Shown here: piece after piece, positions 21,332-54,581 of the stretch | Numbering within the stretch: position 1 is the first letter of the stretch | Layout of the letters: every line of letters starts with the position of its first letter | Assembly (NCBI GenBank): GCA_017983435.1 | Contig: JAGOBM010000004.1 | Coordinates: forward strand, 3,818-67,817 | DNA: 64,000 bases | Direction of reading: 5' to 3' | From: Candidatus Moraniibacteriota bacterium | GTDB lineage: Bacteria; Patescibacteriota; Minisyncoccia; Moranbacterales; UBA1568 | The notes under the pieces: model-generated | The model's database searches: none | The model's input: the letters and a program-made list of their open reading frames with translations, nothing else | Told to the model about the DNA's origin: nothing | Position numbers and translations under genes: made by a program

Positions 21332-21349
21332 AGGGCGACGTTAAAAAAA

Positions 21350-25203: not shown

Positions 25204-26792
25204 CCATGACCGATCTGCAATCATCTTTCTCCGGCGCGATAGGCTATGTGAGACGCCATCGGATCAAGTTTGCGCTCCAGGCGGCAAATATCGTGTTCGG
25301 CGTTCTAGCACTCAGTCTCGCTCTGTCGGGGGTGCTACCGATGAGTCTGGTGAATTTCGTCTTCTTCTCTTTCCTTCTCCTGCTCGTTGCGCTCTATCGT
25401 CCGGTCTGGATATTTCTCCTCCTCGTCGGCATGCTGCCGTACGAGATCGTCAATCTGGCTCCGGCCGAGGTCGGCTTCATGTTGCGACCGTATCAGTGGC
25501 TCATGATTATCCTCCTTGGAGCGGTCGTCATCCGATGGTTTGTCGGGCGTCGGGCAGTGCCGAATCTTCGCTTCGTCTGGATCGACGCTCTGCCGGCCGT
25601 GTTTTCCATGGGCGCGTTGATCGCTGCAATCGGGGCGCATCCGTCCGGACCCGCCTTCCGGCTCGCGCTCATCCTCTCGAGTTTCGTCGGGCTGTATTTC
25701 GTCGTGAGGCTGTTCATCCGATCTGCCAAAGAAGCGGTCCACGTCGTGCCGTTCCTCTCGGCATCGTTTGCTATCGTTGCGCTCTGGTCGCTCATGCAGA
25801 ATATCCTCTTCGCTCTGGGAGGGGCACATTTCGAGGTGATGGCCGGTCGACCCAACGGATCGTTTTCTGAGCCGGATTGGCTCGGCATGTATCTGCTCTT
25901 CTTCGTCGCGCTCGCGCTCGCCTGGCTCTATCGTCATCTGGTGCTGCGGCAGCGCCCGATCCTCTCCATCGCTCCATCACTCCTCCTTTTCCTCGCCTCG
26001 CTCGTGCTTTTCCTCTCGATGACTCGCAGCGCCTGGATCGGCCTGGCAGCGATGGGAGCATTCTTCGCGCTCGCGGTGATGACGGTCTCTATGAAGCTCG
26101 GTGAGCCGAAGCGGGGAGCGCGGCTCCTCGGCCAGTCGGCGGGTATCATCGTGATCGCTCTCCTCTTGATCCCGCTTCTCCATCTGTCGCGCTTCGATAT
26201 ATTTGATCGGGCGGCCTCGACCGGCGGCGAGCAGAAGATCACCATCGCATGTGATGGAGACTCGACCCTGCCGGTACGCCTGGAAAAAATCGAGAGCCTG
26301 GATCAGCTGTCTGCGTGGCACTGCCGGCATATCATGCTCGAAGATATCGCAATGGAGCAGGCGGCTGGAAGATCCATCACCACGGTCTATCGCGATGATC
26401 CCAATGTCTCGATCCGGAAATCGATCTATGAGCGCATCTTTGCATCCGGATCCGAGCGTCCGGTCCAGGGCATCGGGTGGGGCAATATCGGCACGCGGCT
26501 CGGATCGGATGAGCGCGGTGCGGCTCTCAACGCGAGCAATATGTTTCTCGAGTTCTGGCTCGGCAGCGGCCTCATCGGCCTCGTCGCTTTCTCGCTCCTG
26601 TGGTTCGTGCTCGGTTTCCAGTCCGGACGCCTCGCTCTGTCGGGCGGGCAGGAGGAAGTAGCTTTTCCGCTCTTCTTCCATCTGGCCTGGATCGGCTGCA
26701 CGGTTTTCAATCTGTTCAATTCCGGTATTCTGCTCGGGTTCTTCTTCTTCCTGCTCGGGCTCGGAGGACTCTTGTTCCAGAGACGATCATAA
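25188..26792 (+). CDS. O-antigen ligase / Wzy_C family membrane protein (second copy)
   Basis: Polytopic protein with LFLSMTRSAWIGLAAMGAF motif and a large extracytoplasmic loop. Overlaps upstream GT4 stop (ATGA). Confidence 0.6.
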   Translation: MPLSMTMTDLQSSFSGAIGYVRRHRIKFALQAANIVFGVLALSLALSGVLPMSLVNFVFFSFLLLLVALYRPVWIFLLLVGMLPYEIVNLAPAEVGFMLRPYQWLMIILLGAVVIRWFVGRRAVPNLRFVWIDALPAVFSMGALIAAIGAHPSGPAFRLALILSSFVGLYFVVRLFIRSAKEAVHVVPFLSASFAIVALWSLMQNILFALGGAHFEVMAGRPNGSFSEPDWLGMYLLFFVALALAWLYRHLVLRQRPILSIAPSLLLFLASLVLFLSMTRSAWIGLAAMGAFFALAVMTVSMKLGEPKRGARLLGQSAGIIVIALLLIPLLHLSRFDIFDRAASTGGEQKITIACDGDSTLPVRLEKIESLDQLSAWHCRHIMLEDIAMEQAAGRSITTVYRDDPNVSIRKSIYERIFASGSERPVQGIGWGNIGTRLGSDERGAALNASNMFLEFWLGSGLIGLVAFSLLWFVLGFQSGRLALSGGQEEVAFPLFFHLAWIGCTVFNLFNSGILLGFFFFLLGLGGLLFQRRS

Positions 26793-27953: not shown

Positions 27954-29172
27954 GAATAATTACATGAGAGGAGTTTCGACCGACCCGAATATCGGAAGGC
28001 CGGCTCCGCAGAAGGAGAAGCCGAAGCGGAAGAAGTGGCACGTCGCGCTCATCATCCTCGTACTCCTCGCGCTCGCCGGGGGAGCTTTTATGTGGAAGAC
28101 CGGGACTCTTCTCAACAAGATCTCCGGCGGCAATGCCAATATCTTCACGAGCCTGGTCAAGAATCTGCCTGGCGTGGAGAAGAAGCTCGAGGGTGAAGAA
28201 TCCGGCAAGATCAATATCCTCCTCCTCGGCATGCGCGGAGAGGGTGTCGAAGGTGGCGGACTGCTTGCGGATACCATCATGGTGCTCTCGATCCATCCGA
28301 AGCAGGAGGGCAATGACGCCGATCAGCCTCGCGCATCGCTCGTCAGCATCCCGCGCGACCTTTATGTCAAAGTCCCGGGTCAGGATTGGCAGAGCAAGAT
28401 CAACGCGGTCTATGCCGAGGGCGAGAAGCGCGAGCTCCACAAGGGCGGCATGGATGATATGCGTACTATCGTCGGCGAGATCAGCGGTATGGATATCCCG
28501 TACGCGGTGACAATCAATTTCCAGGGATTCAAGGATCTGGTCAATGCGCTCGGCGGAGTCAAAATCACGCTCGATCAGCCGTTTGAAGAATCGCTCCAGT
28601 TCCGTGAGCCGCAGGTCTGCGATGCGTATACGTTTACGATTCCGACCAAACCTCCGCAGTACCAGTACAAGTACTACACGCGCTCCGAAGGGACACGGTA
28701 TATCTCCAAGGTATATCCGCTCTGCTACAACCCGAACGTCGAGTGCGGCGGGGATTTCAAATTGGCAGCTGGCGAGAATACGCTCGATGGCGACAAGGCA
28801 CTCTGCTATTCCCGCTCCCGCAAGACCTCCAATGACTTCGAGCGCGCCAAGCGTCAGCAGCAGGTGATCTCGGCGCTCAAGAAGCAGGCGCTCAGCACCG
28901 GTACGCTCACGAGTTTTGACAAGATCACCGGCGTCATGGACAGCCTCGGCAACAACGTCCGCACCAATCTCGAAGCCTGGGAGATGCAGCGTTTCTTCGA
29001 GCTCTACGTGAAGTCAGGCGATGTCGAGCCGAAGTCCAAGGTGCTCGATACGACTGATGAAGGACTGCTCTATTTCCCGGAGAAGGACAAGTACCCAGGT
29101 GCTGGTTCGATCATCCTGCCGCGTGGCGACAACTATGATCAGATCCGAGCGCTCTTCCAGACGCTGCCGTAG
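27946..29172 (+). CDS. LytR-CpsA-Psr (LCP) family glycopolymer-to-peptidoglycan ligase
   Basis: N-terminal TM anchor, then NILLLGMRGEG...ADTIMVLSIHP...VSIPRDLYVKVPG...NAVYAEGE...DGDKALCYSRSRK, diagnostic of the LCP domain. Confidence 0.75.
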   Translation: MPENNYMRGVSTDPNIGRPAPQKEKPKRKKWHVALIILVLLALAGGAFMWKTGTLLNKISGGNANIFTSLVKNLPGVEKKLEGEESGKINILLLGMRGEGVEGGGLLADTIMVLSIHPKQEGNDADQPRASLVSIPRDLYVKVPGQDWQSKINAVYAEGEKRELHKGGMDDMRTIVGEISGMDIPYAVTINFQGFKDLVNALGGVKITLDQPFEESLQFREPQVCDAYTFTIPTKPPQYQYKYYTRSEGTRYISKVYPLCYNPNVECGGDFKLAAGENTLDGDKALCYSRSRKTSNDFERAKRQQQVISALKKQALSTGTLTSFDKITGVMDSLGNNVRTNLEAWEMQRFFELYVKSGDVEPKSKVLDTTDEGLLYFPEKDKYPGAGSIILPRGDNYDQIRALFQTLP

Positions 29173-29205
29173 TCTCGATCTCTCGTCTCTCTTAAGCAGA
29201 ATCGG

Positions 29206-30024
29206 ATGGAACCGCTCGTCTCTATCGCTGTCAACGGCTACAAGAATCCGGAGCTCCTCCGGCTCTGCCTCCAGGCGCTCTATCGCGAGCTCGAGGGGGC
29301 TCCGTTCCTGTATGAGGTGATTGTTGCCGACAGCGCGACCGAGGAGGATACTGAGCTCATCATGCGCGAAGAGTTTCCGGAAGCCCGGTTCTTTCCGTTT
29401 ACTGACAATGTCGGTTTCAAGAAGCTGTTCAATACTTCGCTCGAAGAAGCGCGGGGCAAATATGTCTTCCTCATCAACAGTGATATCCTCATCAAGCGCG
29501 ACACGATACCGACGCTCATGCGCTACCTCGAGGAGCATCCAGAGACCAAGCTCGTCGGACCGAAGCAGATGAATTTCAACGGGACGCTCCAGCTGAGCTG
29601 TTTCCGCTACTATCAGCCTGAGACGATACTCTATCGCCGCACCTGGCTCGGCCGCCTGCCATTTGGTCGTCGGCATCTCGACTGGTTCCTGATGAGCGAG
29701 TATGACCACGCATCGCCCCGAGGAGTCGATTGGATTACCGGGTCGGCGATGTTCGTCGAGCGCGAGGCAGCGCTCACGGTCGGGCCGATGGATGACCGCT
29801 TCTTCATGTATATGGAGGATGTCGATTGGTGCCGGCGCTTCTGGGAGCACGGTTTTCGCGTCGTCTATGATCCGGAGGCAGTCGCCTATCACTATCATGC
29901 CAAGGGCAGCGCGCGCGGAGGGATACTCGGACTCTTCTTTAATCGGCTGACCTGGTGGCATATCGCGAGCGCCTATCGCTATTTCATGAAATATCTCGGC
30001 AAGCCGGTACCAGAAGTCCGGTAG
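29206..30024 (+). CDS. glycosyltransferase family 2 (rhamnosyl/WbbL-like)
   Basis: VSIAVNGYKNPELLRLCLQAL...VIVADSATEED...INSDIL...YMEDVDWCRRF GT2 motifs. Confidence 0.65.
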   Translation: MEPLVSIAVNGYKNPELLRLCLQALYRELEGAPFLYEVIVADSATEEDTELIMREEFPEARFFPFTDNVGFKKLFNTSLEEARGKYVFLINSDILIKRDTIPTLMRYLEEHPETKLVGPKQMNFNGTLQLSCFRYYQPETILYRRTWLGRLPFGRRHLDWFLMSEYDHASPRGVDWITGSAMFVEREAALTVGPMDDRFFMYMEDVDWCRRFWEHGFRVVYDPEAVAYHYHAKGSARGGILGLFFNRLTWWHIASAYRYFMKYLGKPVPEVR

Positions 30025-30067
30025 ACCACGGAGAGGGATAGCAGCTAATAACACAGACAACAAAACT

Positions 30068-31342
30068 ATGGATACGGCACAGACGAGCAAGACGGAACAG
30101 GAGCGCGGTTTCAGACTTTTCAAACAGTTTTTCCTCTTTTTCGTTGTCCTGGCACTGATCGGGTTGGCTTTCTTCAGTGGGTATGAGCGCGGTCGCGGAT
30201 CACTCTCACTCGGCGATGACGCGGCGCTCTCTCCGGCCGATGCCATCATGCTCAACAAGAATCCCCGGTCGGAAGAAGTCGATTTTGCGCTGTTCTGGAA
30301 GGTCTGGGACATCCTCAAGGACAAGTTCGTCGACAAGTCGAAGCTCGATGCCAAGCAGATGCTCTACGGAGCGATCGACGGCATGCTCGCCTCGACCGGA
30401 GACCCATACACGACCTTCTTCGATCCCAAGGAGAATCAAGAGTTCCAGGAAGATATCTCCGGCAACTTCGAAGGCATCGGAGCGGAGATGGATATCAAGG
30501 ACGATATCCTGACCATCGTCGCACCGCTCGAGGACACACCGGCTGAGCGAGCTGGTCTCCTCGCGGGGGACAAGATCCTCAAGATCGACGGGGAGCCCAC
30601 GACGAATCTCGATATCGACGAAGCGGTGCATCGGATCCGCGGCAAGAAGGGGACGAGCGTGACGCTCAATATCTATCATGTCGGCGATGAGGAAGCTCAG
30701 GATATCGTCGTTCCACGGGATGTCATCCACGTGAAGAGTATCCGTTTTGAGATGAAGGATGACAACCGTGTCGCCTATATCCGTCTCAACCGTTTCGGCG
30801 AAGATACGGCGGTCGAGTTCGAGCGGGCGGTCCGCTCGGCGCTCGAAGCCAAGGCGAGCGGCCTGGTGCTCGATCTGCGCAACAACCCGGGCGGCCTGCT
30901 CGGGAGTGCGGTCGATATCGCGAGTTTCATGTTGCCAGACAGGATGGTCGTCGTCGTCGAGGAGAATGACAAGGGTGTGAAGCGCGAGCTCAAGACGACC
31001 GGAGGCGACGTGCTCTCAGGTGTACCGACAGCGATACTCATCAATGAGGGTAGTGCAAGCGCCTCAGAGATTCTCGCCGGAGCCCTGCGTGAGCAGCGCG
31101 ACAATGTCCGGCTCTTCGGCAAGAAGTCTTTTGGCAAGGGATCGGTCCAGGAGCTCGTCAGTGTGACTCGGGATGCCTCGGTCAAGATCACGGTCGCCAA
31201 GTGGCTGACTCCGAAGGGTAATCAGATCCACAAGGTCGGCATCGCTCCGGATGAGGAAGTCTCGCTGACCCGTGACAATGTCGCCGAGAAGCGCGATCCG
31301 CAGCTCGACAAGGCGATCGAATGGCTCGGGAGCGTCCGCTAG
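30068..31342 (+). CDS. ctpA: carboxy-terminal processing peptidase, S41 family (CtpA-like)
   Basis: N-terminal TM, PDZ segment (GLLAGDKILKIDGEPT), then VLDLRNNPGGLL and FGKKSFGKGSVQ (S41 Ser/Lys dyad region). Confidence 0.75.
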   Translation: MDTAQTSKTEQERGFRLFKQFFLFFVVLALIGLAFFSGYERGRGSLSLGDDAALSPADAIMLNKNPRSEEVDFALFWKVWDILKDKFVDKSKLDAKQMLYGAIDGMLASTGDPYTTFFDPKENQEFQEDISGNFEGIGAEMDIKDDILTIVAPLEDTPAERAGLLAGDKILKIDGEPTTNLDIDEAVHRIRGKKGTSVTLNIYHVGDEEAQDIVVPRDVIHVKSIRFEMKDDNRVAYIRLNRFGEDTAVEFERAVRSALEAKASGLVLDLRNNPGGLLGSAVDIASFMLPDRMVVVVEENDKGVKRELKTTGGDVLSGVPTAILINEGSASASEILAGALREQRDNVRLFGKKSFGKGSVQELVSVTRDASVKITVAKWLTPKGNQIHKVGIAPDEEVSLTRDNVAEKRDPQLDKAIEWLGSVR

Positions 31343-32661: not shown

Positions 32662-33663
32662 ATGAACCCGAATGCACCCAAGAATCGCGAATTCATCAAG
32701 CGGTACCCTTTTCTCTCGGCTATCATCAATAGTGATATGGAGCCGTCGCCTATCTTTAGTCCAGTGAACGATCTCACCATCCACGTCAAAAAGGCTGATG
32801 GCGATCTGATGTTCAGGCAAGCCCACAATGTCGGTCTCGCTGGTGACTCGTCGTGCATCTTTCAACTCACGGACAAGCGCAAAGGACAGGTCATGCGGCG
32901 CGGCGAATACCTTTTCGCTGTCGATAGCAAGATGAATATCATCAATCGTGTAGATTGGCCCCGTAACGACGAGGAACGGAAAGTAACCGGGGAAATCTAT
33001 GGCCGTAAGGTGTTCTGGTCAAAGAAGACTTCTTTCACCAATGGGAGCCCGTGTTACACGGATCCGATTTTCGATACGACCGAGTATCTCGTCTGGCTTA
33101 CCGTCGAAGCATGGCATGCGGATACGGAGGACAATGGTGGACTGGGTAGCCGGTTCGGCAAGTTCATCGACCGCTCTGTCGATATCACGATCTACCGTAA
33201 GCCTGAACAGGGCTTCCGGGAGCTTGAGGAGGAATCTAGTGTCTACTCGAATCTTTCGCTAGACACCCGGCTGATGATGCGCGGCGCTCTCGAGAAGAAT
33301 CCTGATATCCTCATCATGAGCGGCATGCTGTACGAGATGTGCATCTTCTTTCAGGATGAAGTGTATTTCAACGGTATGAAGGCAATCCTCGACGAAGGGA
33401 CATTTCGCGGCGCATCCGGCCAGTTTGGTCCGGTCAAAGTGCTGTGTGCCGAAATGTGCGGGTATGACCGCATCATGCTTGAGGATGCCACGAGCTACGT
33501 AACCTTCCAGCTCCGTCCTGGGTCGAAGCACCTCTACGTGCTCGGACAGCAGGGGACGCTGCCTCGGATCCGCAATCTCGTACGGACCGTCGTAAAGATG
33601 TGGGGAGAAAACCCCGCATCGCGCGCTGCGTTCAAACCGGACGAGAACGTCTCTGTCTTGTAG
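32662..33663 (+). CDS. hypothetical protein (333 aa)
   Basis: Driven by the consensus promoter, with good SD. No recognisable motif. Confidence 0.5.
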   Translation: MNPNAPKNREFIKRYPFLSAIINSDMEPSPIFSPVNDLTIHVKKADGDLMFRQAHNVGLAGDSSCIFQLTDKRKGQVMRRGEYLFAVDSKMNIINRVDWPRNDEERKVTGEIYGRKVFWSKKTSFTNGSPCYTDPIFDTTEYLVWLTVEAWHADTEDNGGLGSRFGKFIDRSVDITIYRKPEQGFRELEEESSVYSNLSLDTRLMMRGALEKNPDILIMSGMLYEMCIFFQDEVYFNGMKAILDEGTFRGASGQFGPVKVLCAEMCGYDRIMLEDATSYVTFQLRPGSKHLYVLGQQGTLPRIRNLVRTVVKMWGENPASRAAFKPDENVSVL

Positions 33664-33764: not shown

Positions 33765-34535
33765 TTGAAGTTTTTGTCGTCACGACATATTCTTAGAAAC
33801 TGGTATACTTATTGCATGAAAGAAACATTTTCTACAAAACTTCTTAAGAAGAGTCAAAGAGCACTCTTTATTGTTACGGGCATTACTGCTGTGGTAGGTA
33901 TTGTTTCGTTTTCTTATTCACTTTTTAATTTTGGTGATCTTAAAATCCCGAATGTTACAGCTGCTTTTGCTACTCTTTCACTTTTCTCATTATTTCTTGC
34001 TATTGGGCTTAATATTTTTTCTTACCTTGATCGATATGAAGAAAAGCTATTTCAGAATATTGAAAACAGCAAAAGAGGCATTGAGGGTGAAAGGCTAGCA
34101 AAAGAGCTAATATCCAAAACAGTTGGGACGAGCCATGGAGCATTCTTCAATAAAGATCTTCCTACGGGAGGTGACATAGATTGTCTTATCCTAGGCAAGA
34201 AAGGTCTGATTCTTATAGAAATCAAGAATTTCTCAAAACAAATAAGGTTGCCGTTGTTCTGGACCAAAGGCTTCGATGACCCTCGAAATGAAGCTAAGAG
34301 GCACGCCACGAGTCTTCTGGAGTACTTTGTTGAAAATGGTTATCGTAAACCGCTTAAGATTCGTAAAGCGGTTCTCTATATCAATAAAGAGGTAGTTTAC
34401 TGGGGTAAGCAGGAAGTTTTCAATATCAGGGGATTGGATCGATTCGCTCCATATTTCTTCAGCCTTCCTCTAGATAGTGCTATTACAGAACAGGATATAG
34501 CTGAGATTTCTTCGTTTATTGAAAAGTTGAAATAA
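33765..34535 (+). CDS. NERD (nuclease-related domain) protein with N-terminal TM anchor
   Basis: GGDIDCLILGKKGLILIEIKNFSK...LPLFWTKG matches the NERD signature. Region is AT-rich (~35% GC) versus ~59% in the flanks. Possible start at 33816. Confidence 0.55.
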   Translation: MKFLSSRHILRNWYTYCMKETFSTKLLKKSQRALFIVTGITAVVGIVSFSYSLFNFGDLKIPNVTAAFATLSLFSLFLAIGLNIFSYLDRYEEKLFQNIENSKRGIEGERLAKELISKTVGTSHGAFFNKDLPTGGDIDCLILGKKGLILIEIKNFSKQIRLPLFWTKGFDDPRNEAKRHATSLLEYFVENGYRKPLKIRKAVLYINKEVVYWGKQEVFNIRGLDRFAPYFFSLPLDSAITEQDIAEISSFIEKLK

Positions 34536-35790: not shown

Positions 35791-35796
35791 TACGAA

Positions 35797-35828
35797 AAAC
35801 CATCCGGTACTTGGATGGTTTTTGTTTT
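35797..35828. terminator. bidirectional intrinsic terminator
   Basis: ACCATCC GGTACTT GGATGGT perfect 7-bp hairpin flanked by A5 and T4GT4. Confidence 0.7.
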
Positions 35829-35832: not shown

Positions 35833-36663
35833 CTATTTCTCAAAAGTGAGGCCGGTTTTTTCGAGGTCGGCGGGGGTGGCGTCGATGACGCGGACCATGA
35901 AGAGATTGAGATCGGAGAGGCGGACACCGGCACGGAAAGCCTCATTGCCGCTCCTGCCGTAGATGATGATCATCGTGGAGCGCGGAAGCTCCTGGGCGCG
36001 GTTCTCGAGATCAGCGAGGGGGATATGGAGGGCTTGGCGGATATGGGAGGAGGCTCGGAATTCCGCATCGGTCCGGACATCGAGGAAGATGGCATCCGGA
36101 TTGCTCTCGAGGAAAGTCTTGATTTCTCCGAGTTTGAGATAGGTAACTTTGGACTGGTCGAGAAATGATCCGGGATTGCCGATCGCTATCGTCGGTCGGC
36201 CGCTTCCGACCCAGCCCTCGAATCCTCCGGCCAGGAAGAGATGCTCACCGCCGGAATGCTTGAGTATCTTGTCGGCTTCCGGGAGCAGTCCGCTCTGCGA
36301 GGCGGCAGAGATGACGATGGTCGTCTTGTCTTCCTCGGGGTCATAGCCTGCGAGAGCCGAAAAATCGATCGGGCGCGATCGGGGCACGTGGAGCTGTTCG
36401 AAATCACCCGCAGGCCGGATATCGATGAAGACGATATTCCGGTCGCGTTCTGAGCGGGACCAGGCATCATGGGCGGTGATGTAGGAGAGATCGGCAGCAT
36501 CGGTACTGTCTGCCTCCTCGGTCGCTGTCGTCGGTGACGCATCGTCGACCTCGCTCCGGAAGAAGCGCTTGCTCGCAAAAAAGATACCGACACAGAGGAT
36601 GCCGATGAGTCCGATGAAGAGCACGGTGCTATCTTGGCGGCGGCGCGAGCGTGAGTCGGCCAT
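35833..36663 (-). CDS. membrane-anchored tandem rhodanese-homology-domain protein, both domains lacking the catalytic Cys
   Basis: Two RHOD-like domains (NIVFIDIRPAGDFEQLHVP ... and AIFLDVRTDAEFRASSHIRQALHIP ...). Active-site loop positions read VISAASQSG and IIYGRSGNEA instead of CxxGxR. Confidence 0.55.
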   Translation of the reverse strand: MADSRSRRRQDSTVLFIGLIGILCVGIFFASKRFFRSEVDDASPTTATEEADSTDAADLSYITAHDAWSRSERDRNIVFIDIRPAGDFEQLHVPRSRPIDFSALAGYDPEEDKTTIVISAASQSGLLPEADKILKHSGGEHLFLAGGFEGWVGSGRPTIAIGNPGSFLDQSKVTYLKLGEIKTFLESNPDAIFLDVRTDAEFRASSHIRQALHIPLADLENRAQELPRSTMIIIYGRSGNEAFRAGVRLSDLNLFMVRVIDATPADLEKTGLTFEK

Positions 36664-36675: not shown

Positions 36676-37689
36676 TTACTGGAGGGAGCTACCGATGAAA
36701 TTCTTGTAGCCGTTGACGAAGGCTTTGATGTCGGTACGCTCCTTGCCTTCGAGCTGGACTTCTTCGAGGATGATGACGCCGGTCGTCGTCTGGACGCCGA
36801 TGGCCTCGCCGATTTCGAAGACTTCTCCGAGAGCATGCTTGATCTGCGGGGATTGCTTGAGATGGGAGACGGTGATGAGTTTCAGCCGGAGCGGCGATTC
36901 CTCATGCTTCCAGTAGGTGAAGATACCGGGCCACGGAGTGAGCGCGCGGTAGCGGTCGTAGATCGTCTGCGAGTCGGCATCCCAGAAGACGCGGCCGTCC
37001 TCACGGTCAATGAGCTGGCAGAGCGTCGCCTGAGCATCATCCTGCTTTTCTGGGGTGATCCGGCGTTCGACGAAATCTGGCAGGATACGGCGGAGCAGCT
37101 CAGAGCCGAGCGCCGCGAGACGGATCTCGAGATCGGGTCGGGTCTCATCGAGTTCGATAGCGGTGCTCTCCTTGGCGATGATGTCTCCAGTGTCCATGCC
37201 GGCATCCATGAGCATGATGGTGACGCCGGTCTCGGTCTCTCCGGAGAGCAGGGTGTTGTGTATCGGTGATGACCCGCGCCACTTGGGCAGGAGCGAAGCG
37301 TGCACGTTGACGCAGCCGAATCCGGGTACGCGAAGCAGGGTCTCCGGCAGGATGCGGCCATAGGCAGCGACGATGATGAGGTCCGGCTTCCAGTCCTTGA
37401 TAGCATCGATAGTCGTCTCATCGATCTTCTCGGGCTGCAGGAGCGGCAGGGTGTGCTCAGTAGCGATTTCCTTGACGCGGCTTGCTGTGAGCTCCTGCTT
37501 GCGGCCGGCCGGCTTGTCGGGCTGGGTGACGACGCCGACGATGTTGTAGTGGTGCTCGAGCAGGTCGGCGAGTATGGTCCCGGCGAACTGCGGGGTCCCC
37601 ATGAAGACGACGCGGACTTTCGGAGTCTCGTGCTCGACGGTGATATTAATCTTCTCTGCCAGGTCCTGATTATTCGACGATGCGTCCAT
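36676..37689 (-). CDS. fmt: methionyl-tRNA formyltransferase
   Basis: VVFMGTPQFAGTILADLL..., NVHASLLPKWRGSSPIHNTLLSGETETGVTIMLMDAGMDTGDII (Fmt SLLP motif). Start taken at Met46 of the track ORF. Overlaps def by 20 nt as is typical. Confidence 0.85.
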   Translation of the reverse strand: MDASSNNQDLAEKINITVEHETPKVRVVFMGTPQFAGTILADLLEHHYNIVGVVTQPDKPAGRKQELTASRVKEIATEHTLPLLQPEKIDETTIDAIKDWKPDLIIVAAYGRILPETLLRVPGFGCVNVHASLLPKWRGSSPIHNTLLSGETETGVTIMLMDAGMDTGDIIAKESTAIELDETRPDLEIRLAALGSELLRRILPDFVERRITPEKQDDAQATLCQLIDREDGRVFWDADSQTIYDRYRALTPWPGIFTYWKHEESPLRLKLITVSHLKQSPQIKHALGEVFEIGEAIGVQTTTGVIILEEVQLEGKERTDIKAFVNGYKNFIGSSLQ

Positions 37690-38161
37690 ATATTTTTCCG
37701 TGTTTAATTTTCTGTTTACGATAGCGGGTGCAGATGAGGATGCCGTCGAGGTGATCGATCTCATGCTGGAGGACGATGGCGAGCAGGCCGTCGGCGCGGA
37801 CACGCTTGGGCAGTCCCTTTTCATTGATATATTTTACCGTAATTTCCTCATGCCGTTCAATCGGGAAGAATTGCCCGGGGAGACTGAGGCAGCCTTCTTC
37901 AAAGAGGATCTTGTCCTGCGAGCGGCGGGTGATCTCGGGGTTGATGTACTTGCCGACGACGCCGTCGACTTCGACGACGCAGATGCGTTCCGAGATGCCG
38001 ATCTGCGGCGCGGCCAGCCCGACTCCTTCGGCGCGGCGCATGATGACGACCATCTCGTCGAGGAGCTCCTTGGTTTCTGTCGGGAATGGCACAACGACCG
38101 GAGCCGCCTTGCGGTTCAGGACTTCTGTTTTTTCGCCAGTAACGATTTCGAAGTGTTTCAT
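37670..38161 (-). CDS. def: peptide deformylase
   Basis: GVGLAAPQIG, EGCLSLPG and QHEIDHLDG motifs. Start at MKHFEIV (Met57 of track ORF). Confidence 0.85.
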   Translation of the reverse strand: MKHFEIVTGEKTEVLNRKAAPVVVPFPTETKELLDEMVVIMRRAEGVGLAAPQIGISERICVVEVDGVVGKYINPEITRRSQDKILFEEGCLSLPGQFFPIERHEEITVKYINEKGLPKRVRADGLLAIVLQHEIDHLDGILICTRYRKQKIKHGKIYGRIVE

Positions 38162-40083
38162 ACGTGAAGGGAAAGAGGGTCGCGATCGACAAACGTGTCT
38201 TTCGGGAGCGACCGGAACCAGTCTTCGAGTTGGTCCGGAAAGGCGTCTCCTTTGACCCGGATCAAGACGCGGGCGATGTGCTGGCCGCGGAAACGGCGCT
38301 CGGGTGCCTGCTGTATGAAAATACGCCATTTTTCGCTTTCTGGCAATGCTTTGACGGCTTTCCCAAGCTTTTCAGCGGCACTGTCAGCCAGTCCTTGGGA
38401 ATCGCGTATCACCTCGACGGCGGCGAGCTCGGCGAAGGGCGGATAGGCCAGAGCGGAACGGTCATCGGTGAGGGTTTGGAGTATTTTGCCATAGGTCTCA
38501 CCGGCGATCTTGCGGAAGAAGGCGCTCTCGGGCTGGAAGGTCTCGAGGATGACGAGCCCCTGGCCTCCGGCGAGGAGCCGCGCTCGGAAGACGCGCTCGA
38601 GGAAGCGCTCATCGGTACGGAAGTCGCTCCAGGTAAGGAAGGTATCCGTATCGACGAAGACGACCAGTGAGATCGACGGATCGGAGAGGTGATTGAGGAG
38701 CGAGGGAACGCCAATCAGGATATCCGCCGTCTCGGTCAGTCCGTGCTCGACGAGAGCGCTCCGCTCAGCCCGGGTGTCGAGCGCCGTCCGATCGATGCGG
38801 GAGATGCGGGCGTAGGTGAAGGCCTTACGGATCTCGCGTTCGACCCGCTCGGTGCCGAATCCGACTTGGCGGAAACTGATATGTCCGCAGCCGGGACAGC
38901 TCGGGAAGAGCGGCGTATGGTACGTGCAGGCCGAGCAGGCGTAGGTGCCGGCTTTCTCAGGGTGCAGAGGCGCCTGGCACTCTGGGCAGCGGAAGATATT
39001 CTTGCAGCCTTCACAGAGCGTGATCTTGGAATAGCCAGACTGGTTGACGATGACGACGATTTTCTCCTGGCGGCCGAGCGCTTGCCCGATGCGGGTGCGG
39101 GCGGTCTCGGAGAGCGGAGAATAGTTCTTGCGGTAGCGCTCGAGCCGGAGATTGGTCGTCTCGATTGGAGCGATCGGCAGCGCGGCGACGAGATCGGTAT
39201 GTGTGAGGTGGCCCGCTGCTTCCGCCTTCATGTCGGCGATGGTGGCGAAGGGCGCGAGCGAGATAAGGTCGGCTCCGGATGACTCGGCAAGGAGTGAGGC
39301 AATGCGTCGGCCATCGTAGCGCGGGCTCATGTCCCATTGCTTGTAGGCGTCATCGATAGGGTCGACCATGATGATGGTACCGAGCGCCGAGAAAGGAGCG
39401 AAGAGCGCCTGGCGCGTGCCGATGATGATGGATCGCGGATCACGGGCGTATTCCCAGGCGGAGAAATACTGCTTGCCGGTTTCCGCACTTGTGAGGAGTC
39501 GATGGTCGATGCCGGAGCGATCAAGCGATGAGGAGAGGAGCTCGGCGCCGATGATTTCCGGCACGATGATGACGATTGAGCGTTTGGATTTCTTGCGGGC
39601 AGCGATGAGGAGAGCGATTGTTCGGTCGCGATCTTGAGGAGCGATACTGAGCGCGTGCCGGCCCGGTACCGAGAGGGGTGAGAGTGATTTTTTCAGCGCG
39701 GCGGGGATACGCGGCTTCGGCGTGATGGCTGTGCGCGGCGTGGGCGGGGAGAGCTTGGTAGCATCGGGGATGAAATGCGCGAGCGTCTTGCCGAGCGAAG
39801 TGAAGTACAGGCGGCTGATGGATTCCGCGAGCGCGAGCTGTCCCGGGGTGATGCAGTGCGGGGTGATGACCGCTGTGACTTCTTTCATCCAGGGGGCTGG
39901 CCGGGTCGGGAGCTCCTGGCAGATCGAGACGATACCGCGGAGCTGCTGCTTGCCAAAGGGGATGCTGACCAGCGATCCGGCTTCGATGGCCTGGCGCGAG
40001 AAATATGTGAAGAACGGCGACCGTTTGAGCGGCAGGATGGTGAGCGGGGCTATTTCGAGTCGGTAGAAGGTCGTGGAAGGCAT
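38158..40083 (-). CDS. priA: primosomal protein N' (PriA) homologue with apparently degenerate helicase ATPase motifs
   Basis: PriA N-terminal 3'-end binding region, VPEI box, C-terminal zinc-binding Cys cluster (CEGCKNIFRCPECQAPL...CSACTYHTPLFPSCPGCGH) and conserved priA-def-fmt order. Walker A position reads APQDRDRT (not GxTGSGKT), motif II DPIDDAYKQ (not DEEHDSSYKQ) and motif VI RLLAGG (not AGRAGR). Confidence 0.7.
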   Translation of the reverse strand: MPSTTFYRLEIAPLTILPLKRSPFFTYFSRQAIEAGSLVSIPFGKQQLRGIVSICQELPTRPAPWMKEVTAVITPHCITPGQLALAESISRLYFTSLGKTLAHFIPDATKLSPPTPRTAITPKPRIPAALKKSLSPLSVPGRHALSIAPQDRDRTIALLIAARKKSKRSIVIIVPEIIGAELLSSSLDRSGIDHRLLTSAETGKQYFSAWEYARDPRSIIIGTRQALFAPFSALGTIIMVDPIDDAYKQWDMSPRYDGRRIASLLAESSGADLISLAPFATIADMKAEAAGHLTHTDLVAALPIAPIETTNLRLERYRKNYSPLSETARTRIGQALGRQEKIVVIVNQSGYSKITLCEGCKNIFRCPECQAPLHPEKAGTYACSACTYHTPLFPSCPGCGHISFRQVGFGTERVEREIRKAFTYARISRIDRTALDTRAERSALVEHGLTETADILIGVPSLLNHLSDPSISLVVFVDTDTFLTWSDFRTDERFLERVFRARLLAGGQGLVILETFQPESAFFRKIAGETYGKILQTLTDDRSALAYPPFAELAAVEVIRDSQGLADSAAEKLGKAVKALPESEKWRIFIQQAPERRFRGQHIARVLIRVKGDAFPDQLEDWFRSLPKDTFVDRDPLSLHV

Positions 40084-40193
40084 AGAGTCATCTCATTGTA
40101 CCAAGTTTCGCGCTGGCTGTATGCGGGACCGGACGTGAAAACTTGTCTTTTTGGCTTTTCCAAGCTACAATTCGGCTATTCATCACTTATTCT

Positions 40194-40742
40194 ATGCTCC
40201 AGCGCAGGCTTTTTATCGGGATACCGCTCTCTTCAGCACTCGCCTCCCGTCTCTCCAAAGAGATGGCGGCGTGGCCGAAGGAGATTTTTCTCAAGACGGA
40301 CAAGGACAATCTCCATGTCACGCTGTTTTTTCTCGGCTTCGTCCGCGAGAATACTGTGCCGGATATCTGCGAGAAGGTCCGGGCGCTCTGCGAGACTATG
40401 GAATCATTCGAGATCGAGTTCTCAGGCATCCGTCTCATGCCGACTCCGGAGGACGCCAAGATGGTCTGGCTCGCCGGAGAGCCGAGCGAGGAGCTCCGCG
40501 ATCTCAAGACCGCTATCGAGCGCGAGCTCTCCTTCGTCGTCTCAGCCGAACCGAAAATCTATCGTCCGCATATCACGCTGTCCCGGATGAAGAAGGCCCG
40601 CTTCCAGGCACTCGATCCGAAGCCGACCATCGAGAAAGATATCCGGTTGGTCGAATCGGTCGACACGGTGGTCGTCTATGAGAGCATCATGGAAGACGGG
40701 AAGCGACGCTACATGCCGATCGAATCGGTCCCGCTCATCTAG
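40194..40742 (+). CDS. thpR: RNA 2',3'-cyclic phosphodiesterase (2H phosphoesterase, LigT/ThpR family)
   Basis: Two H-x-T-x motifs (HVTLFFLG and HITLSR) at canonical spacing. Start at Met18. Confidence 0.7.
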   Translation: MLQRRLFIGIPLSSALASRLSKEMAAWPKEIFLKTDKDNLHVTLFFLGFVRENTVPDICEKVRALCETMESFEIEFSGIRLMPTPEDAKMVWLAGEPSEELRDLKTAIERELSFVVSAEPKIYRPHITLSRMKKARFQALDPKPTIEKDIRLVESVDTVVVYESIMEDGKRRYMPIESVPLI

Positions 40743-47116: not shown

Positions 47117-47884
47117 TCATGCTTGATGCAGCATGGTTACTTGATTGCGACCACGCTTTTTAGAGAGGTAGAGCGCCTGGTCGGCCACTTCGAGGAGCGG
47201 ATCTATTATTCCGAGAACTTCGTCCCCTACCGCATCGCGCAAAAACTTGGCGGGAGTCACGAGTTGTGATGTGACTCCGCAGCTCAGAGTGATCCGGACA
47301 TCGCTGCACGCGTATATTTGTTCTACAGAGTGACGAAGATGATCTGCCATCGTGTGAGCGATTTTGGCGGATGTCTTTGGAAGGATGATGACAAATTCAT
47401 CTCCGCCGTAGCGACAACAAATATCCATTTTCCGATGGAATGTTTCCTTGATATGTCGACTGATGGTGCGAATTACTTTGTCGCCTGCCTTGTGTCCGCA
47501 TTGGTCATTGATTGATTTGAAGTGATCGATATCGATCATGATGACTGATATGTGGATAGCGGTATCCTTCGACTGACGTTCGCGTGAGATAAGGCCAAGT
47601 TCGATTTGAAGTGCCTCCTGAGCGCCGCGACGATTGAAAAGTCCCGACAATGCATCGATTGTCGCCCCTTGTTCGGCGCGTATGGCCCGGTCCCAGAACG
47701 TGATAGCAGTGAATATCGGCATAATTATGAAGCCGACCGAGAGAGCGACTGCGTAGAGCTCCTTCATTGGTTGCTCTGGAATCAGATGGAGTAGGAGTGC
47801 TAGCAGGAGAAATCCTGGGGTGAGCAATCCTACGAGTAGCACCATTACGTCTTTGTTGATACGCGTTATGGGCAGCGTTCTCAT
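47117..47884 (-). CDS. diguanylate cyclase (GGDEF domain) with two N-terminal TM helices
   Basis: LSGLFNRRG...IDIDHFKSINDQCGHKAGD...CCRYGGDEFVIILP, an intact GGDEF active site. Confidence 0.8.
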   Translation of the reverse strand: MRTLPITRINKDVMVLLVGLLTPGFLLLALLLHLIPEQPMKELYAVALSVGFIIMPIFTAITFWDRAIRAEQGATIDALSGLFNRRGAQEALQIELGLISRERQSKDTAIHISVIMIDIDHFKSINDQCGHKAGDKVIRTISRHIKETFHRKMDICCRYGGDEFVIILPKTSAKIAHTMADHLRHSVEQIYACSDVRITLSCGVTSQLVTPAKFLRDAVGDEVLGIIDPLLEVADQALYLSKKRGRNQVTMLHQA

Positions 47885-48028: not shown

Positions 48029-49225
48029 GTGAAGACCCTCTCAAAAGCATTAAAACACCCTCCTATGCGTATTTCCTACTCCAGTCTCAATACGTACGAG
48101 ACCTGCCCGCTGAAGTACAAGTATCACGATATAGACAAGATCAAGGAACCGAAGTCGAAAGACCAAGTTTTCGGGACCCTAATCCATTCGGTGCTGCACT
48201 ATTATCATACGCCAGCCCTGCTTGCGCCGAATCTCGAGCAGGCGCTGGATTTCTTCGCCAAGCGCTGGAACAGCGAGGTATTCGAGAGTGAGCTCGAGGA
48301 GCGTTCGGCCTTCACGGAGGGCGTAAAGATCATCGAACGCTATTGTCGGGACAATGCTCCGGGAGATTTTACCATCGTCGATCTCGAGAGCCGCTTCTCG
48401 ATCGAGATCGGGGACGAGGTAGGCGGCCGGCATACGATATCGGGCATCATCGATCGGATCGACAAGACCGAGCACGGATACGAAATCATCGACTACAAGA
48501 CGACCAAGAAAATGCCTTCGCAGGAGAAAGTTGACAACGATCTCCAACTCTCGATCTATCTCAAGGCGTTTCTCGATCGCTATCCCAAGGAGATCGAGCA
48601 TCTCGAGACGATCACAGTGAGTCTCTATTACTTGAAGCATGGAGTGAAGCTCTCATCGACGCGAACACGTGAAGAGCTCGAGCGGATAGACCAGGAATTC
48701 CTCGCCGTCATCAAATCGATCGAGGAAGGGAAGTTCGAGCCGCTCCTCTCCCCGCTCTGCGATTGGTGCGGGTACCAGAAGATCTGCCCGTTGTGGAAAC
48801 ATAAGTTTGTGGAAAATCGTCAGCTTGAGACCGGCGAAGTGAAAGAGGCTATCGCCGAGTATCTCGATCTCAAGGGCAAGCTATCGGCCGAGAAGCTCCG
48901 CATCGCCAAGCTGCAGGAGACGATACTCGCCTATATGGAACAGGAAGGAGTCGATCGGGTTTTCGATGAGCAAGGTATCATCGGCAAGTCGCTCCGCAAG
49001 ACGTACAAATACAACAGCGACCAGCTGCGCGCCATACTCGAGCCGCTCGACAAATGGGAGGGCGTGCTCAAGGTAGACGGCATCGCGCTCCGAAATATTC
49101 TCGCGACGCTCCCCTCCCCGACCAAAAAAGAAATCGAGCTCGCCAAGGAGCTCGATCGGGAATCAGTCAGTCTATCGGTGAAGCGCGTCAAGGATATCGA
49201 AGGAAGCGACGATCTGGCCGGATAG
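48029..49225 (+). CDS. PD-(D/E)XK nuclease superfamily protein with C-terminal Cys cluster (Cas4/AddB-nuclease-like fold)
   Basis: IIDRIDKTEHGYEIIDYKTTKK (D...E.K core) and C-terminal CDWCGYQKICP. GTG at 48029 or ATG at 48065. Confidence 0.55.
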   Translation: MKTLSKALKHPPMRISYSSLNTYETCPLKYKYHDIDKIKEPKSKDQVFGTLIHSVLHYYHTPALLAPNLEQALDFFAKRWNSEVFESELEERSAFTEGVKIIERYCRDNAPGDFTIVDLESRFSIEIGDEVGGRHTISGIIDRIDKTEHGYEIIDYKTTKKMPSQEKVDNDLQLSIYLKAFLDRYPKEIEHLETITVSLYYLKHGVKLSSTRTREELERIDQEFLAVIKSIEEGKFEPLLSPLCDWCGYQKICPLWKHKFVENRQLETGEVKEAIAEYLDLKGKLSAEKLRIAKLQETILAYMEQEGVDRVFDEQGIIGKSLRKTYKYNSDQLRAILEPLDKWEGVLKVDGIALRNILATLPSPTKKEIELAKELDRESVSLSVKRVKDIEGSDDLAG

Positions 49226-51917: not shown

Positions 51918-52085
51918 GGGAATTTCTCCTGGGAAATGACAGGTATTGCCCTGTCGTTGAGTAGTCAAAGAACTTCACGTATCCTCTTCTGCAGGATACG
52001 GTTGCAAAAAGCATGCCAGAAATAATATCAATTGTCAAGAATGAGCAGATAAAAAATCCATTCATAGAAGAGGATTTTTTTTGTT

Positions 52086-52122
52086 TTGGCTGAGGCTCTG
52101 GGACGATGTTGGAACTTACTTG
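52086..52122. repeat. ~35-bp 3'-UTR repeat, copy 1
   Basis: ggctgaggctctgggacgatgttggaacttacttg. A near-identical copy lies at 52481-52515. Confidence 0.5.
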
Positions 52123-52466
52123 GTATCAGTCCACTCACCTGAATTCTCATCATAATTGGACAAAGTGTCTCCCCCTACGCACATGCCATCCTCCACCGGA
52201 CCGATAAAGTACGCCACATCAACCAGCGTATTTGCTGCTTTTGTTTCCTGATAGTTGCCTGAGCGCCTGTAAGAAAAAAGCGAGACATCTCCTTGGTCAT
52301 CTACGGTAACCACTTCGTGCAAATAAACACCTTTCTCGTCTTCCAGCGTCCTGACTATTTCTGGATTTTCTTGGCCGCATAATTTTTCAATTTTTGCCTT
52401 CGCTTCTTCCAATGAAAGGAAACGTGGTTCTTTTTCGGCAGCTGGCATCGGGTTTTCAAAATTCAT
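52116..52466 (-). CDS. hypothetical protein
   Basis: 116 aa. Lies in a lower-GC segment. Confidence 0.4.
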   Translation of the reverse strand: MNFENPMPAAEKEPRFLSLEEAKAKIEKLCGQENPEIVRTLEDEKGVYLHEVVTVDDQGDVSLFSYRRSGNYQETKAANTLVDVAYFIGPVEDGMCVGGDTLSNYDENSGEWTDTK

Positions 52467-52480
52467 ACATTTGAAGTTAA

Positions 52481-52515
52481 AAAATAGGCTGAAGCTCTGG
52501 GACGAAGTTGGAGAT
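52481..52515. repeat. ~35-bp 3'-UTR repeat, copy 2
   Basis: ggctgaagctctgggacgaagttggagattatttg. Confidence 0.5.
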
Positions 52516-53174
52516 TATTTGATATAAGTCCAGTAGTCTCCGGATCCTACTATATCCAGTTTTCCATCGGAAATCCGTATCGCGGTTTGATCATCGGTAG
52601 CGTACACTGAGTGATTGAGCGAGTTTTTGAGTCCTTCCAAAACATCCTTTCTCACACGGGAGAACCATTCGGAATTGAGATGCGGGACGAACGAGAAATC
52701 ATAGAATTCCATGGGGTGTTCAAGCGTAGTACCGAAGTCTTCTTCCGGATAGATTGCTTTCAGTAATTCGCGAGATAGGTATTGACCCGCAACCATACTC
52801 CCCGCGCTGATGCCCATGTAAACCTTGGTATCCAGCATGGAAAGGAGGAATTCCTTCATTCCGATTTCCTTGAAAATTTTTGCGAGATATTGTTCATTCC
52901 CTCCACCAAATGAAATGATATCTGCTTCTTGCAGGCGCCTCTTCCATAGCTCAGGAGATACGGCAGCTACATCGAGGATATCAATGGATTTGAAGTGTCG
53001 TTTCTGAAGATTGACGAGATCATCGATAACCCAGCTTTTATCACCGCTTTCCGTATTTGCAGCTGTCGGTATATGGATTATTGAGAGTTCAGAAAGAGAG
53101 CGTCCGGCAAGCTCGGACAGAGCTTCAGCGATAACATCGTTTGTGAGACCCGCAGAAGTGAGAAGGAGTTTCAT
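52515..53174 (-). CDS. peptidase S51 family (dipeptidase E / cyanophycinase-like)
   Basis: MKLLLTSAG...GGGN...GISAGS (Ser nucleophile) layout of the S51 family. Confidence 0.65.
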   Translation of the reverse strand: MKLLLTSAGLTNDVIAEALSELAGRSLSELSIIHIPTAANTESGDKSWVIDDLVNLQKRHFKSIDILDVAAVSPELWKRRLQEADIISFGGGNEQYLAKIFKEIGMKEFLLSMLDTKVYMGISAGSMVAGQYLSRELLKAIYPEEDFGTTLEHPMEFYDFSFVPHLNSEWFSRVRKDVLEGLKNSLNHSVYATDDQTAIRISDGKLDIVGSGDYWTYIK

Positions 53175-53207
53175 AGATTTTGAGACTTTTTGACGAATTT
53201 GGAACTT

Positions 53208-53762
53208 TTATATTTCAAAATCCGCCTTTAATTTCTGGATAAATCGATGCATATGAGGATCAAAAGATGAGGTCGGAGCTTGTAATATTTCATCAAAAGT
53301 AAACCATTTATACCCATTAAATTCACCTGGATCGTATCGGATTTCATCCTGGATTCCTCCTGATAGGAGATACCATAGGCTGACATCTTTATGTCCAGCG
53401 GTTTTCCCTACAGTAGTGGTAATTGTCAGAAAAAAAGGATTTCCCCTAATAAATTTTGCTGTAAGGTTTAACTCCTCCATCGCTTCTCTTTCCACGGTTG
53501 CTTTAGGATCTTCATCCGCCTCTACATGCCCACCTGCTGGAAGCCAGAGTTCCGCTTTTATGTGGTCTACCAAAAGAATAGCTTTATTTTCAATATCTAT
53601 TACAACAAAATATGAAACAAGATGTTTTGGTGGTTTGTCGGGTTTTTCAATCCGAAAAATCTCTACTCCACTTTTAATCCAATGAAGGGCATCTTCTTGA
53701 TGAGTTTTTTCTAATTCATCAATCGGAGAAATTTTCTCTATCAGTTCTAAGTTCCGTTTCAT
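53208..53762 (-). CDS. NUDIX hydrolase
   Basis: Nudix box GGHVEADEDPKATVEREAMEELNL. Confidence 0.75.
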   Translation of the reverse strand: MKRNLELIEKISPIDELEKTHQEDALHWIKSGVEIFRIEKPDKPPKHLVSYFVVIDIENKAILLVDHIKAELWLPAGGHVEADEDPKATVEREAMEELNLTAKFIRGNPFFLTITTTVGKTAGHKDVSLWYLLSGGIQDEIRYDPGEFNGYKWFTFDEILQAPTSSFDPHMHRFIQKLKADFEI

Positions 53763-54580: not shown

Positions 54581-54581
54581 G

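Follow-up and report, generated by a model that had tools for sequence, protein, structure and literature searches.

A natural PriA protein without a motor has been described in Deinococcus radiodurans, an organism without priB or dnaT; this protein has no ATPase or helicase activity and binds single-stranded DNA (ssDNA; Kd ~215 nM), forks (~109 nM) and the replicative helicase DnaB (PMC4504706). Here we describe the priA gene of a 64-kb window of a Moranbacteria genome, belonging to the candidate phyla radiation (CPR). The window is the whole stretch of 64,000 nucleotides that was analysed, and all coordinates below are positions in it. The gene encodes a PriA orthologue in which all NTPase motifs are replaced, and its product is probably kept as a scaffold for replication restart that works independently of ATP.

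The Moranbacteria protein resembles D. radiodurans PriA in being an orthologue with Walker A and Walker B off consensus and the rest kept (PMC4504706). The Walker A Lys is lost together with a degenerate Walker B (K to R; DE to VD), and the gene is maintained by selection (ratio of nonsynonymous to synonymous change, omega, 0.085 against the related locus L002). The Arg in the Walker A Lys column is likewise found in Deinococcus-Thermus, although it is not conserved among the relatives of the Moranbacteria protein. The departures reported for Deinococcus-Thermus concern motifs I and II, with K to R in a still recognisable GKT position (PMC4504706), whereas here motifs I, II, III, V and VI are replaced, motif IV is altered, the P-loop is free of glycine and the winged-helix (WH) domain is absent. 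The origin is also a separate one, within Patescibacteria/Parcubacteria, where intermediates and canonical orthologues occupy one and the same slot. Deinococcus was the only exception given in a 2017 review (PMC5778457). With the present case, large uncultivated lineages would join a pseudohelicase state that had so far been demonstrated in Deinococcus alone; no description of such a state in CPR PriA was found in the searchable literature, which is weak evidence, as subscription journals lay mostly outside the search.

The rationale for a PriA without a motor comes from Escherichia coli. The K230R change alone eliminates the protein's ATPase, helicase and translocase functions, and yet priA300 cells are near wild type and the K230R protein supports PriA-PriB restart; the motor is needed by the PriA-PriC route and in Mu transposition (PMC5778457). 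The K230R/A/D proteins (priA300 and others) are thus motor-dead with primosome assembly kept (PMC5778457). They are, however, engineered single changes that work together with PriB, DnaT and DnaC, whereas the Moranbacteria protein is natural, has lost all the motifs and, unlike them, is without the PriB-docking residues.

The actinobacterial PriA may be a further pseudohelicase case. To our knowledge, a UniProt caution describes it as having no detectable helicase domains. It was reported to be 'smaller and very divergent' (PMC1193525), and mycobacterial PriA is an essential 'helicase loader' in a host without DnaC, DnaT, PriB and PriC (PMC5694481). The Moranbacteria protein matched the actinobacterial PRK14873 models (E 1e-29 to 4e-11) far more weakly than the PRK05580 and TIGR00595 models, and is thus not of the actinobacterial type.

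Replaced helicase motifs in a PriA architecture

An earlier note, made from the sequence alone, had called the product a PriA homologue with conserved N- and C-terminal regions and a conserved zinc-binding Cys cluster, and this identification was upheld by several methods. The replication restart helicase PriA model TIGR00595 aligned over aa 160-611 with 224.4 bits (E 2.4e-66), without reaching its curated cut-off of 230.35; the PRK05580-type PriA models gave E 1e-72, yet all sub-models scored far below their own cut-offs. The Pfam domain PF17764 (PriA_3primeBD) was matched above cut-off at aa 16-106 (E 5.9e-11) and Zn_ribbon_6 weakly, and there was no match in the protein to Pfam DEAD or Helicase_C. 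When phmmer was run against the sequences of the PDB, only PriA was retrieved (Klebsiella pneumoniae and E. coli, E 2e-43 to 3e-41). The structure predicted by AlphaFold2 from a 93-sequence alignment was a confident PriA fold (mean local confidence score, pLDDT, 90.4; global score, pTM, 0.91), with two RecA-like lobes and, after them, a C-terminal domain, arranged as in PriA. The top nine Foldseek hits in the PDB were PriA structures (E 1e-41 to 6e-30, TM 0.66-0.76), and the next families, Mfd and DbpA, followed at ~1e-10. The kept terminal regions were thus seen in the PF17764 match, in the TIGR00595 alignment reaching aa 611 and in the fold alignment, and all eight Cys of the zinc cluster were present and aligned to those of E. 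coli.

The features of the gene are given below in the order of the protein, all on the minus strand; "ex-" marks a motif whose columns are filled by other sequence.

38158..40083, minus strand: priA coding sequence, an uninterrupted open reading frame (ORF) with ATG start, 641 aa and a stop; orthologue of PriA in which every NTPase motif is replaced.
39766..40083, minus strand: 3'-end-binding domain (3'BD), aa 1-106; PF17764, alignment, entropy 0.39-0.48 bits.
39679..39765, minus strand: short variable linker, aa 107-135, in place of the WH domain; alignment gap, pLDDT 50-67 at aa 111-130.
39619..39642, minus strand: ex-Walker A (motif I), APQDRDRT in the columns of GPASSGKT (E. coli GVTGSGKT); alignments and AlphaFold2.
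39391..39576, minus strand: DNA-contact motifs of lobe 1, Ia (VPEI, aa 170-182) and Ic-like GTRQALFAPF (aa 219-231); conserved with E. coli and canonical CPR PriA.
39349..39378, minus strand: ex-Walker B (motif II), TIIMVDPIDD in the columns of LVVVDEEQDD (D to V, E to D, E to P, Q/H to I).
39304..39348, minus strand: aromatic-rich loop AYKQWDMSPRYDGRR, aa 246-260; same sequence as in canonical CPR PriA.
39232..39267, minus strand: ex-motif III, LISLAPFATIAD in the columns of VVFGSATPSIER; alignments, entropy 1.14 bits.
39019..39060, minus strand: altered motif IV, IVVIVNQSGYSKIT, NRRG/NRQG changed to NQSG and newly fixed in the clade; 8 of 14 positions invariant.
38881..39018, minus strand: cysteine-rich region (CRR), aa 356-401, an insertion in lobe 2 with four CXXC pairs (C357, C360, C366, C369, C383, C386, C396, C399).
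38662..38721, minus strand: ex-motif V, ILIGVPSLLNHLSDPSISLV in the columns of ILIGTQMATKGWDLPNVALV; alignments, entropy.
38527..38595, minus strand: ex-motif VI, RVFRARLLAGGQGLVILETFQPE; both arginine fingers of QxxGRxxR lost (to L and to gap/L), 15 of 23 positions invariant.
38161..38493, minus strand: C-terminal domain (CTD), aa 531-641, with conserved YPPF and DxDP; TIGR00595 to aa 611, fold alignment, conservation.

The register of the motifs was taken from alignments with E. coli K-12 PriA (NC_000913) and homologues (MAFFT; HMMER pairwise), and the PriA of a related Moranbacteria metagenome-assembled genome (MAG), L049 = P0107, served as the canonical CPR reference. The HMMER pairwise alignment to the K. 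pneumoniae structure gave the same register for motifs II and VI. The earlier note had read by eye IAPQDRDRT at the Walker A position, DPIDDAYKQ for DEEHDSSYKQ and RLLAGG at motif VI. These readings proved correct in three independent alignments (one by HMMER, two by MAFFT): IAPQDRDRT stands in the Walker A columns, VDPIDDAYKQ fills those of the DExH box and RARLLAGG fills those of GRAGRAGK, and the degenerate strings fell in the motif columns with TIGR00595, phmmer and MAFFT alike. Motifs III, IV and V, on which the note had been silent, are replaced as well. From canonical CPR PriA to the Moranbacteria protein, the motif III columns change from GSATPS to SLAPFA (SAT to APF), those of motif V from GTQMATKG to GVPSLLNH, and those of motif VI from QAAGRMAR (E. 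coli GRAGRAGK) to RARLLAG(G).

The ex-P-loop has the same length as in canonical CPR PriA, so that a physical deletion of the P-loop was ruled out; its sequence is replaced and without glycine. In the AlphaFold2 model, as assigned by DSSP, strand beta1 (aa 142-146) is followed by two residues and then by a helix starting at P149 (149-166), and no phosphate-binding loop is therefore predicted. The note had named intact motifs elsewhere in the sequence as what would overturn its reading; a regex scan of the whole protein found none of G....GK[TS], DExH/D, SAT or QxxGRxxR. The sole GKT tripeptide (aa 98-100) belongs to a 3'BD helix; its alignment partners, G-D-V in E. coli and G-R-C in canonical CPR PriA, are not P-loop residues, and it is thus not a displaced P-loop. 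On these alignments the protein is very probably dead as an ATPase and almost certainly unable to unwind DNA.

The region of E. coli PriA at ~109-181, the WH domain, has no counterpart in the Moranbacteria protein, so that ~70 residues are missing, and the linker at this place (aa 107-135) is the least conserved window of the protein (2.51 bits). In agreement with this gap, the E. coli PriA construct with the WH domain deleted (PDB 6dcr), one of the best structural matches, was covered over its whole length (TM 0.75/0.76). In both, the 3'BD is joined to helicase lobe 1 with no WH domain in between; 6dcr is, however, engineered and catalytically intact, whereas the architecture in the CPR is natural and common to canonical and degenerate PriAs. 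The canonical WH-less PriAs of Moranbacteria/Parcubacteria (P0107 = L049, P0119 = L055) have ~640-680 aa and the same domain order and slot as the protein studied here, with an aromatic-rich loop and an NLR(L/F)ER segment that are identical or nearly so. In contrast, they keep GPASSGKT, DEEQ, SAT, GTQM and QAAGRMAR together with DEAD/Helicase_C matches, at 30-35% identity. Since the WH domain is also absent from these canonical proteins, its absence is a trait of the lineage unrelated to the motif loss, and the domain is not universal in the family. The protein has no intact superfamily 2 helicase motifs and scores below the TIGR00595 cut-off, and it has the architecture and gene order of PriA; it should be classed as an orthologue of PriA that is predicted to be a pseudohelicase, and not among the helicases.

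Relatives, constraint and selection

All relatives found were MAGs of the Patescibacteria/Parcubacteria group, mostly Candidatus Moranbacteria/Moraniibacteriota. Within the clade of the Moranbacteria protein, all 27 unique sequences share the degenerate motif state, and the substitutions that the earlier note had wished to see checked in close relatives are thus common to them. A scan of the GTDB species representatives with the patterns YKQWDMS and TRQGLFAP yielded 80 loci in 80 different assemblies. Nine species had the fully degenerate state (DPIDD/DADDD, NQSGY, GVPSLLN, RARLLAG), while about 60 of the 80 loci were intermediates without Walker A and motif VI that keep EEQD, GTP and GTQM; all motifs were intact at 5/80 loci, a figure that is not a prevalence, since the patterns favour the degenerate clades. 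Canonical WH-less PriAs are in fact plentiful among MAGs that bear a Moranbacteria or Parcubacteria label: with the canonical L049 as seed, a protein search gave 3437 matches, and the best 120 of 3437 all carry DEAD and Helicase_C.

The genes around these loci were located by tblastn with the neighbours from the window. Downstream of priA, def (peptide deformylase) was found in 79/80 loci, fmt (methionyl-tRNA formyltransferase) in 77/80 and a rhodanese-domain gene in 73/80, and a LigT-like gene was syntenic with priA in 64/80. The five canonical copies (L049, L055, L069, L076 and L079) sit in the same priA-def-fmt-rhodanese slot, one of them (L076) also with GltX-WecG-LigT upstream. This shared slot indicates that canonical and degenerate PriAs are positional orthologues in different species, and that the gene studied here is the resident priA, degenerated in place. 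In a neighbour-joining (NJ) tree without support values, four canonical copies were sister to the large degenerate Moranbacteria clade and a second degenerate clade, of Yanofskybacteria type, was placed elsewhere, which suggests at least two independent losses of the PriA motor motifs.

A search seeded with the Yanofskybacteria PriA (L083) gave 120 homologues labelled Yanofskybacteria, Taylorbacteria or Paceibacterota; Walker A, DExH and motif VI were missing from 120/120, and four CXXC pairs were present in 119/120. A wider HMMER search of 1.84 billion representatives at 50% identity retrieved 13,844 PriA-like proteins at E <= 1e-3, and motifs were counted in the 144 nearest full-length representatives, among which the whole clade of the Moranbacteria protein is a single one (P0010). 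Walker A GK[TS] was missing from 78, of which 75 were also without motif VI RxxR; 49 were without motifs I, II, III and VI together, and 54 were fully canonical. Judged from these sequences, the loss of motor motifs is lineage-wide in Parcubacteria-group bacteria.

The survey also showed that about half of the intermediate-tier Moranbacteria PriAs (P0023-P0120, L020-L048) have only three CXXC pairs. These proteins have RCPxSG in the first zinc knuckle, where the fourth Cys has been substituted, and one of their zinc sites may therefore differ, unlike in the protein described here. Many MAGs assembled by third parties that carry a Moranbacteria-type priA-def-fmt (L006, L011-L019 and others) are titled 'uncultured Bdellovibrionales bacterium', and one Yanofskybacteria-like locus (L085) is titled Saccharibacteria; these titles are probably mislabels.

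To see where the protein is held constant, entropy was calculated per column over the 27 unique sequences of the clade (54-94% identity; protein mean 0.89 bits). The ex-P-loop (1.12 bits, 1/12 positions invariant) and ex-motif III (1.14 bits, 0/12) varied above this mean, while the motif IV region and ex-motif VI had 0.39 and 0.49 bits. The most conserved stretch of the protein was the aromatic-rich loop YKQWDMSPRY (0.25 bits, and 0.05 over aa 244-255), the counterpart of which in E. coli PriA crosslinks to fork-junction DNA (PMC5778457). Motif Ia had 0.66 bits and the Ic-like GTRQALFAPF 0.34 bits. In the 3'BD, the PFGK motif and K67 are the counterparts of G37 and K61, which line the 3'-end pocket of E. 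coli PriA (PMC5778457). At the start of lobe 2, NLRLERYRKNYSPLS (aa 311-325; 39109-39153) had 0.06 bits in the clade; it is near-invariant in degenerate and canonical CPR PriAs and unlike E. coli PriA in sequence, and is thus CPR-specific. Ex-motifs I and III vary above average, and these two NTPase elements have thus been released from constraint, in contrast to the DNA-contact and zinc elements. Conserved fork-contact parts next to a drifting ex-P-loop are the pattern expected of an ATPase-dead fork binder.

Selection on the gene was measured by the Nei-Gojobori method against P0001, a relative of 94% amino acid identity from the independent Logan contig L002. For priA, dS was 0.39 and dN 0.033, which gave the omega of 0.085; in the same pair omega was 0.079 for def and 0.090 for fmt, with dS of ~0.3-0.4, and it was 0.06-0.07 for the two degenerate RecA lobes. 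Purifying selection acts on priA no less strongly than on def and fmt, and this low omega excludes a pseudogene.

Gene neighbourhood and the rest of the window

In the window, the gene order priA-def-fmt asserted by the earlier note was recovered with Pfam and NCBIfam models on the minus strand, and the block comprises the following further features.

38158..38161, minus strand: priA stop and def start overlapping in ATGA (CAC GTA TGA / ATG AAA CAC); translational coupling.
37670..38161, minus strand: def (peptide deformylase), 163 aa from M57 of a long ORF; Pfam, TIGR00079, start inferred from relatives.
36676..37689, minus strand: fmt (methionyl-tRNA formyltransferase), 337 aa; TIGR00460 285.6 bits, 20-nt overlap with def.
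35833..36663, minus strand: rhodanese-domain gene; Pfam, final gene of the conserved priA-def-fmt-rhodanese block.
35795..35823, both directions: bidirectional terminator-like hairpin closing the block, from a consensus scan only.

An identical 4-nt overlap of priA and def is called in the relatives L002-L005. The mechanical ORFs of def (37670-38329) and fmt begin further upstream than the starts used in relatives, by 56 and 45 codons, and the fmt N-terminus carries a conserved extension of ~22 aa, MDASSNNQDLAEKINITVEHETPK, ahead of the usual VRVVFMGTP start. Upstream of priA and divergent from it lies a gene for a LigT-like 2H phosphoesterase (40143-40742, plus strand). Rfam and tRNA scans gave nothing linked to the priA locus.

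Among the other contents of the window, positions 1-28000 form a large island of cell-envelope glycosylation. It contains three tandem PMT_2/GT39-like genes of the mannosyltransferase family (2-1771 and 1778-4063 on the minus strand, 4066-5952 on the plus strand), a Wzx/MurJ-like flippase (8275-9750), a UDP-glucose dehydrogenase (21756-23054), four GT4 glycosyltransferases and two Wzy_C O-antigen-ligase-like genes (10921-12393 and 25188-26792). Genes of RNA-repair type are represented by an RtcB RNA ligase (13495-14997, minus strand) and by the LigT/2H phosphoesterase already mentioned. A protein with a GGDEF diguanylate-cyclase domain is encoded at 47117-47884 on the minus strand (E 1e-33), here in a CPR genome. 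There are also stand-alone genes of nuclease type, namely a PD-(D/E)XK_1 gene (Cas4/AddB-like; 48029-49225, plus strand), a NERD-domain gene with N-terminal transmembrane segments (33765-34535, plus strand) and a DUF559 gene of the Vsr-like endonuclease fold (9823-10167, minus strand).

A low-GC patch was seen at 52001-54000 (41.5% vs ~55% for the window); it contains Peptidase_S51, NUDIX and unannotated ORFs, adjoins a tRNA-Gln (54581-54653) and could be an island. Several long ORFs had no Pfam match at E <= 1e-4: 17289-19205 (minus strand, 638 aa), 5967-7502 (plus, 511 aa), 29014-30354 (minus, 446 aa), 20480-21754 (plus, 424 aa) and 32662-33663 (plus, 333 aa). The GC skew was steadily positive over 1-24000 (0.07-0.26 per 2-kb bin), and the cumulative skew climbed near-monotonically over the whole window, with no signature of a replication origin or terminus within the 64 kb.

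Proposed role of a PriA predicted to lack its motor, and rival readings

The resident priA product, predicted to have lost ATP binding and hydrolysis, is probably kept as an ATP-independent scaffold of replication restart. The mechanism proposed for it draws on analogy with the structures and genetics of E. coli PriA and with D. radiodurans PriA. In E. coli, the CRR of PriA on a fork with a ssDNA lagging arm swings, encloses the ssDNA and exposes the partner-docking surface, and with a duplex lagging arm this switch does not occur unless PriA unwinds the arm (PMC10175261; PMC13594977). In the Moranbacteria cell, the 3'BD would recognise an abandoned fork or D-loop by the nascent leading strand's 3' end, and lobe 1, which carries the aromatic-rich loop and motifs Ia/Ic, would hold the ssDNA of the lagging-strand template together with lobe 2, the CRR and the CTD. 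The bound protein would then recruit DnaB, and this recruitment may be direct or go through a partner other than PriB, because the PriB-docking residues are not conserved. With ATP binding and hydrolysis lost, translocation and unwinding would be lost with them, and without a motor the protein would act only at forks on which lagging-strand ssDNA is already exposed, or has been cleared by another helicase or nuclease.

Several observations weigh against this proposal. For D17 of the E. coli 3'-end pocket, the sequence alignment shows no obvious equivalent. In E. coli, PriB is docked through the PriA residues D438, S481, T482 and H483 (PMC10175261), and these columns read G/H/I/S in the Moranbacteria protein, a divergence that is expected, since the lineage lies outside the proteobacteria that have PriB. 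At ex-motifs IV and VI a new sequence has become fixed, possibly for a new function beyond structural upkeep. None of the genes dnaB, dciA, dnaC, ssb, priB, dnaT, recG and rep was recognisable in the 64-kb window, and as only these 64 kb of the genome are visible, a second, canonical PriA or a compensating helicase may lie elsewhere.

That last point leads to the reading in which the gene is a degenerate paralogue and a canonical, active PriA elsewhere in the genome performs restart. The small part of the genome in view and the frequency of canonical WH-less PriAs in MAGs labelled Moranbacteria or Parcubacteria would suit it; however, canonical and degenerate copies share the priA-def-fmt-rhodanese slot, often with GltX-WecG-LigT upstream, two PriA loci were met in 0/80 assemblies although the scan patterns do match canonical copies of the L049 type, and the NJ tree groups the canonical copies as a sister clade, not interleaved. 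CPR genomes are moreover small and seldom retain paralogues. We regard this reading as very unlikely. Also very unlikely, and slightly less probable still, is that the protein remains an NTPase or helicase by way of non-canonical catalytic residues or another nucleotide site. R154-T155 do stand in the K-T columns of Walker A, an Asp stands in the Glu column of Walker B, and ex-motifs IV and VI are strongly conserved in their new forms, but motifs I, II, III and VI have been replaced all together with no motif strings elsewhere, and the ex-P-loop is glycine-free, predicted to be helical and more variable than the protein average. The R-T pair is not kept even at 94% identity, where P0001 has DRDPAI, and in E. 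coli PriA K230R by itself is enough to kill the ATPase (PMC5778457). A decaying pseudogene or an artefact of assembly or annotation, to which the score just under the TIGR00595 cut-off and the missing DEAD/Helicase_C match might point, was rejected on the dN/dS and the confident predicted fold and has a negligible probability: the 641-codon frame is intact, its omega equals that of the essential neighbours, and independent samples yield the same protein at 94%, 68% and 54-57% identity with conserved synteny.

A more serious rival, which we nonetheless consider unlikely, is that the PriA fold has served as the chassis for a role outside restart, as a structure-specific DNA-binding regulator or a recombination factor. 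New sequences are fixed at ex-motifs IV, V and VI, NLRLERYRKNYSPLS is near-invariant and CPR-specific, the WH domain is lost and the PriB-docking surface is not conserved. The WH loss and the NLRLERY segment are, however, common to canonical CPR PriAs and so not tied to the motif loss, PriB is in any case confined to some proteobacteria (PMC10175261), and it is the fork-recognition elements (3'BD, CRR, CTD and aromatic-rich loop) that are the conserved parts. The Deinococcus pseudohelicase still binds forks and DnaB (PMC4504706), and PriA is near-ubiquitous and is essential in mycobacteria, which have no DnaC, DnaT, PriB or PriC (PMC1193525; PMC5694481). A restart scaffold thus remains the preferred role.

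A bolder version of this scaffold reading is doubtful, in our estimate, though not far-fetched. PriA would have been converted repeatedly and stepwise, across large parts of the Parcubacteria group and by way of graded intermediates, into an ATP-independent adaptor for fork recognition and helicase loading. In the clade that has diverged furthest, to which the gene in this window belongs, the new NQSGY, GVPSLLN and RARLLAG sequences would lock the two RecA lobes and the CRR in a single conformation, making the protein a switch that is constitutively 'on', free of nucleotide and able to load DnaB in the absence of PriB, DnaT and PriC. If true, this would be a natural minimal system of replication restart.

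The public label of these proteins is 'primosomal protein N' / replication restart helicase', despite the score of the present one below cut-off, and metabolic and repair reconstructions of the CPR should not count a PriA of this type as a helicase. The finding bears on whether most forks need the motor of PriA, and on whether, in bacteria without PriB, DnaT and PriC, the replicative helicase can be loaded by PriA alone. One syntenic slot here holds a natural series of PriAs, from canonical through those without Walker A and motif VI to the fully degenerate, all under selection, and this series could define the minimal motor-independent core of replication restart.

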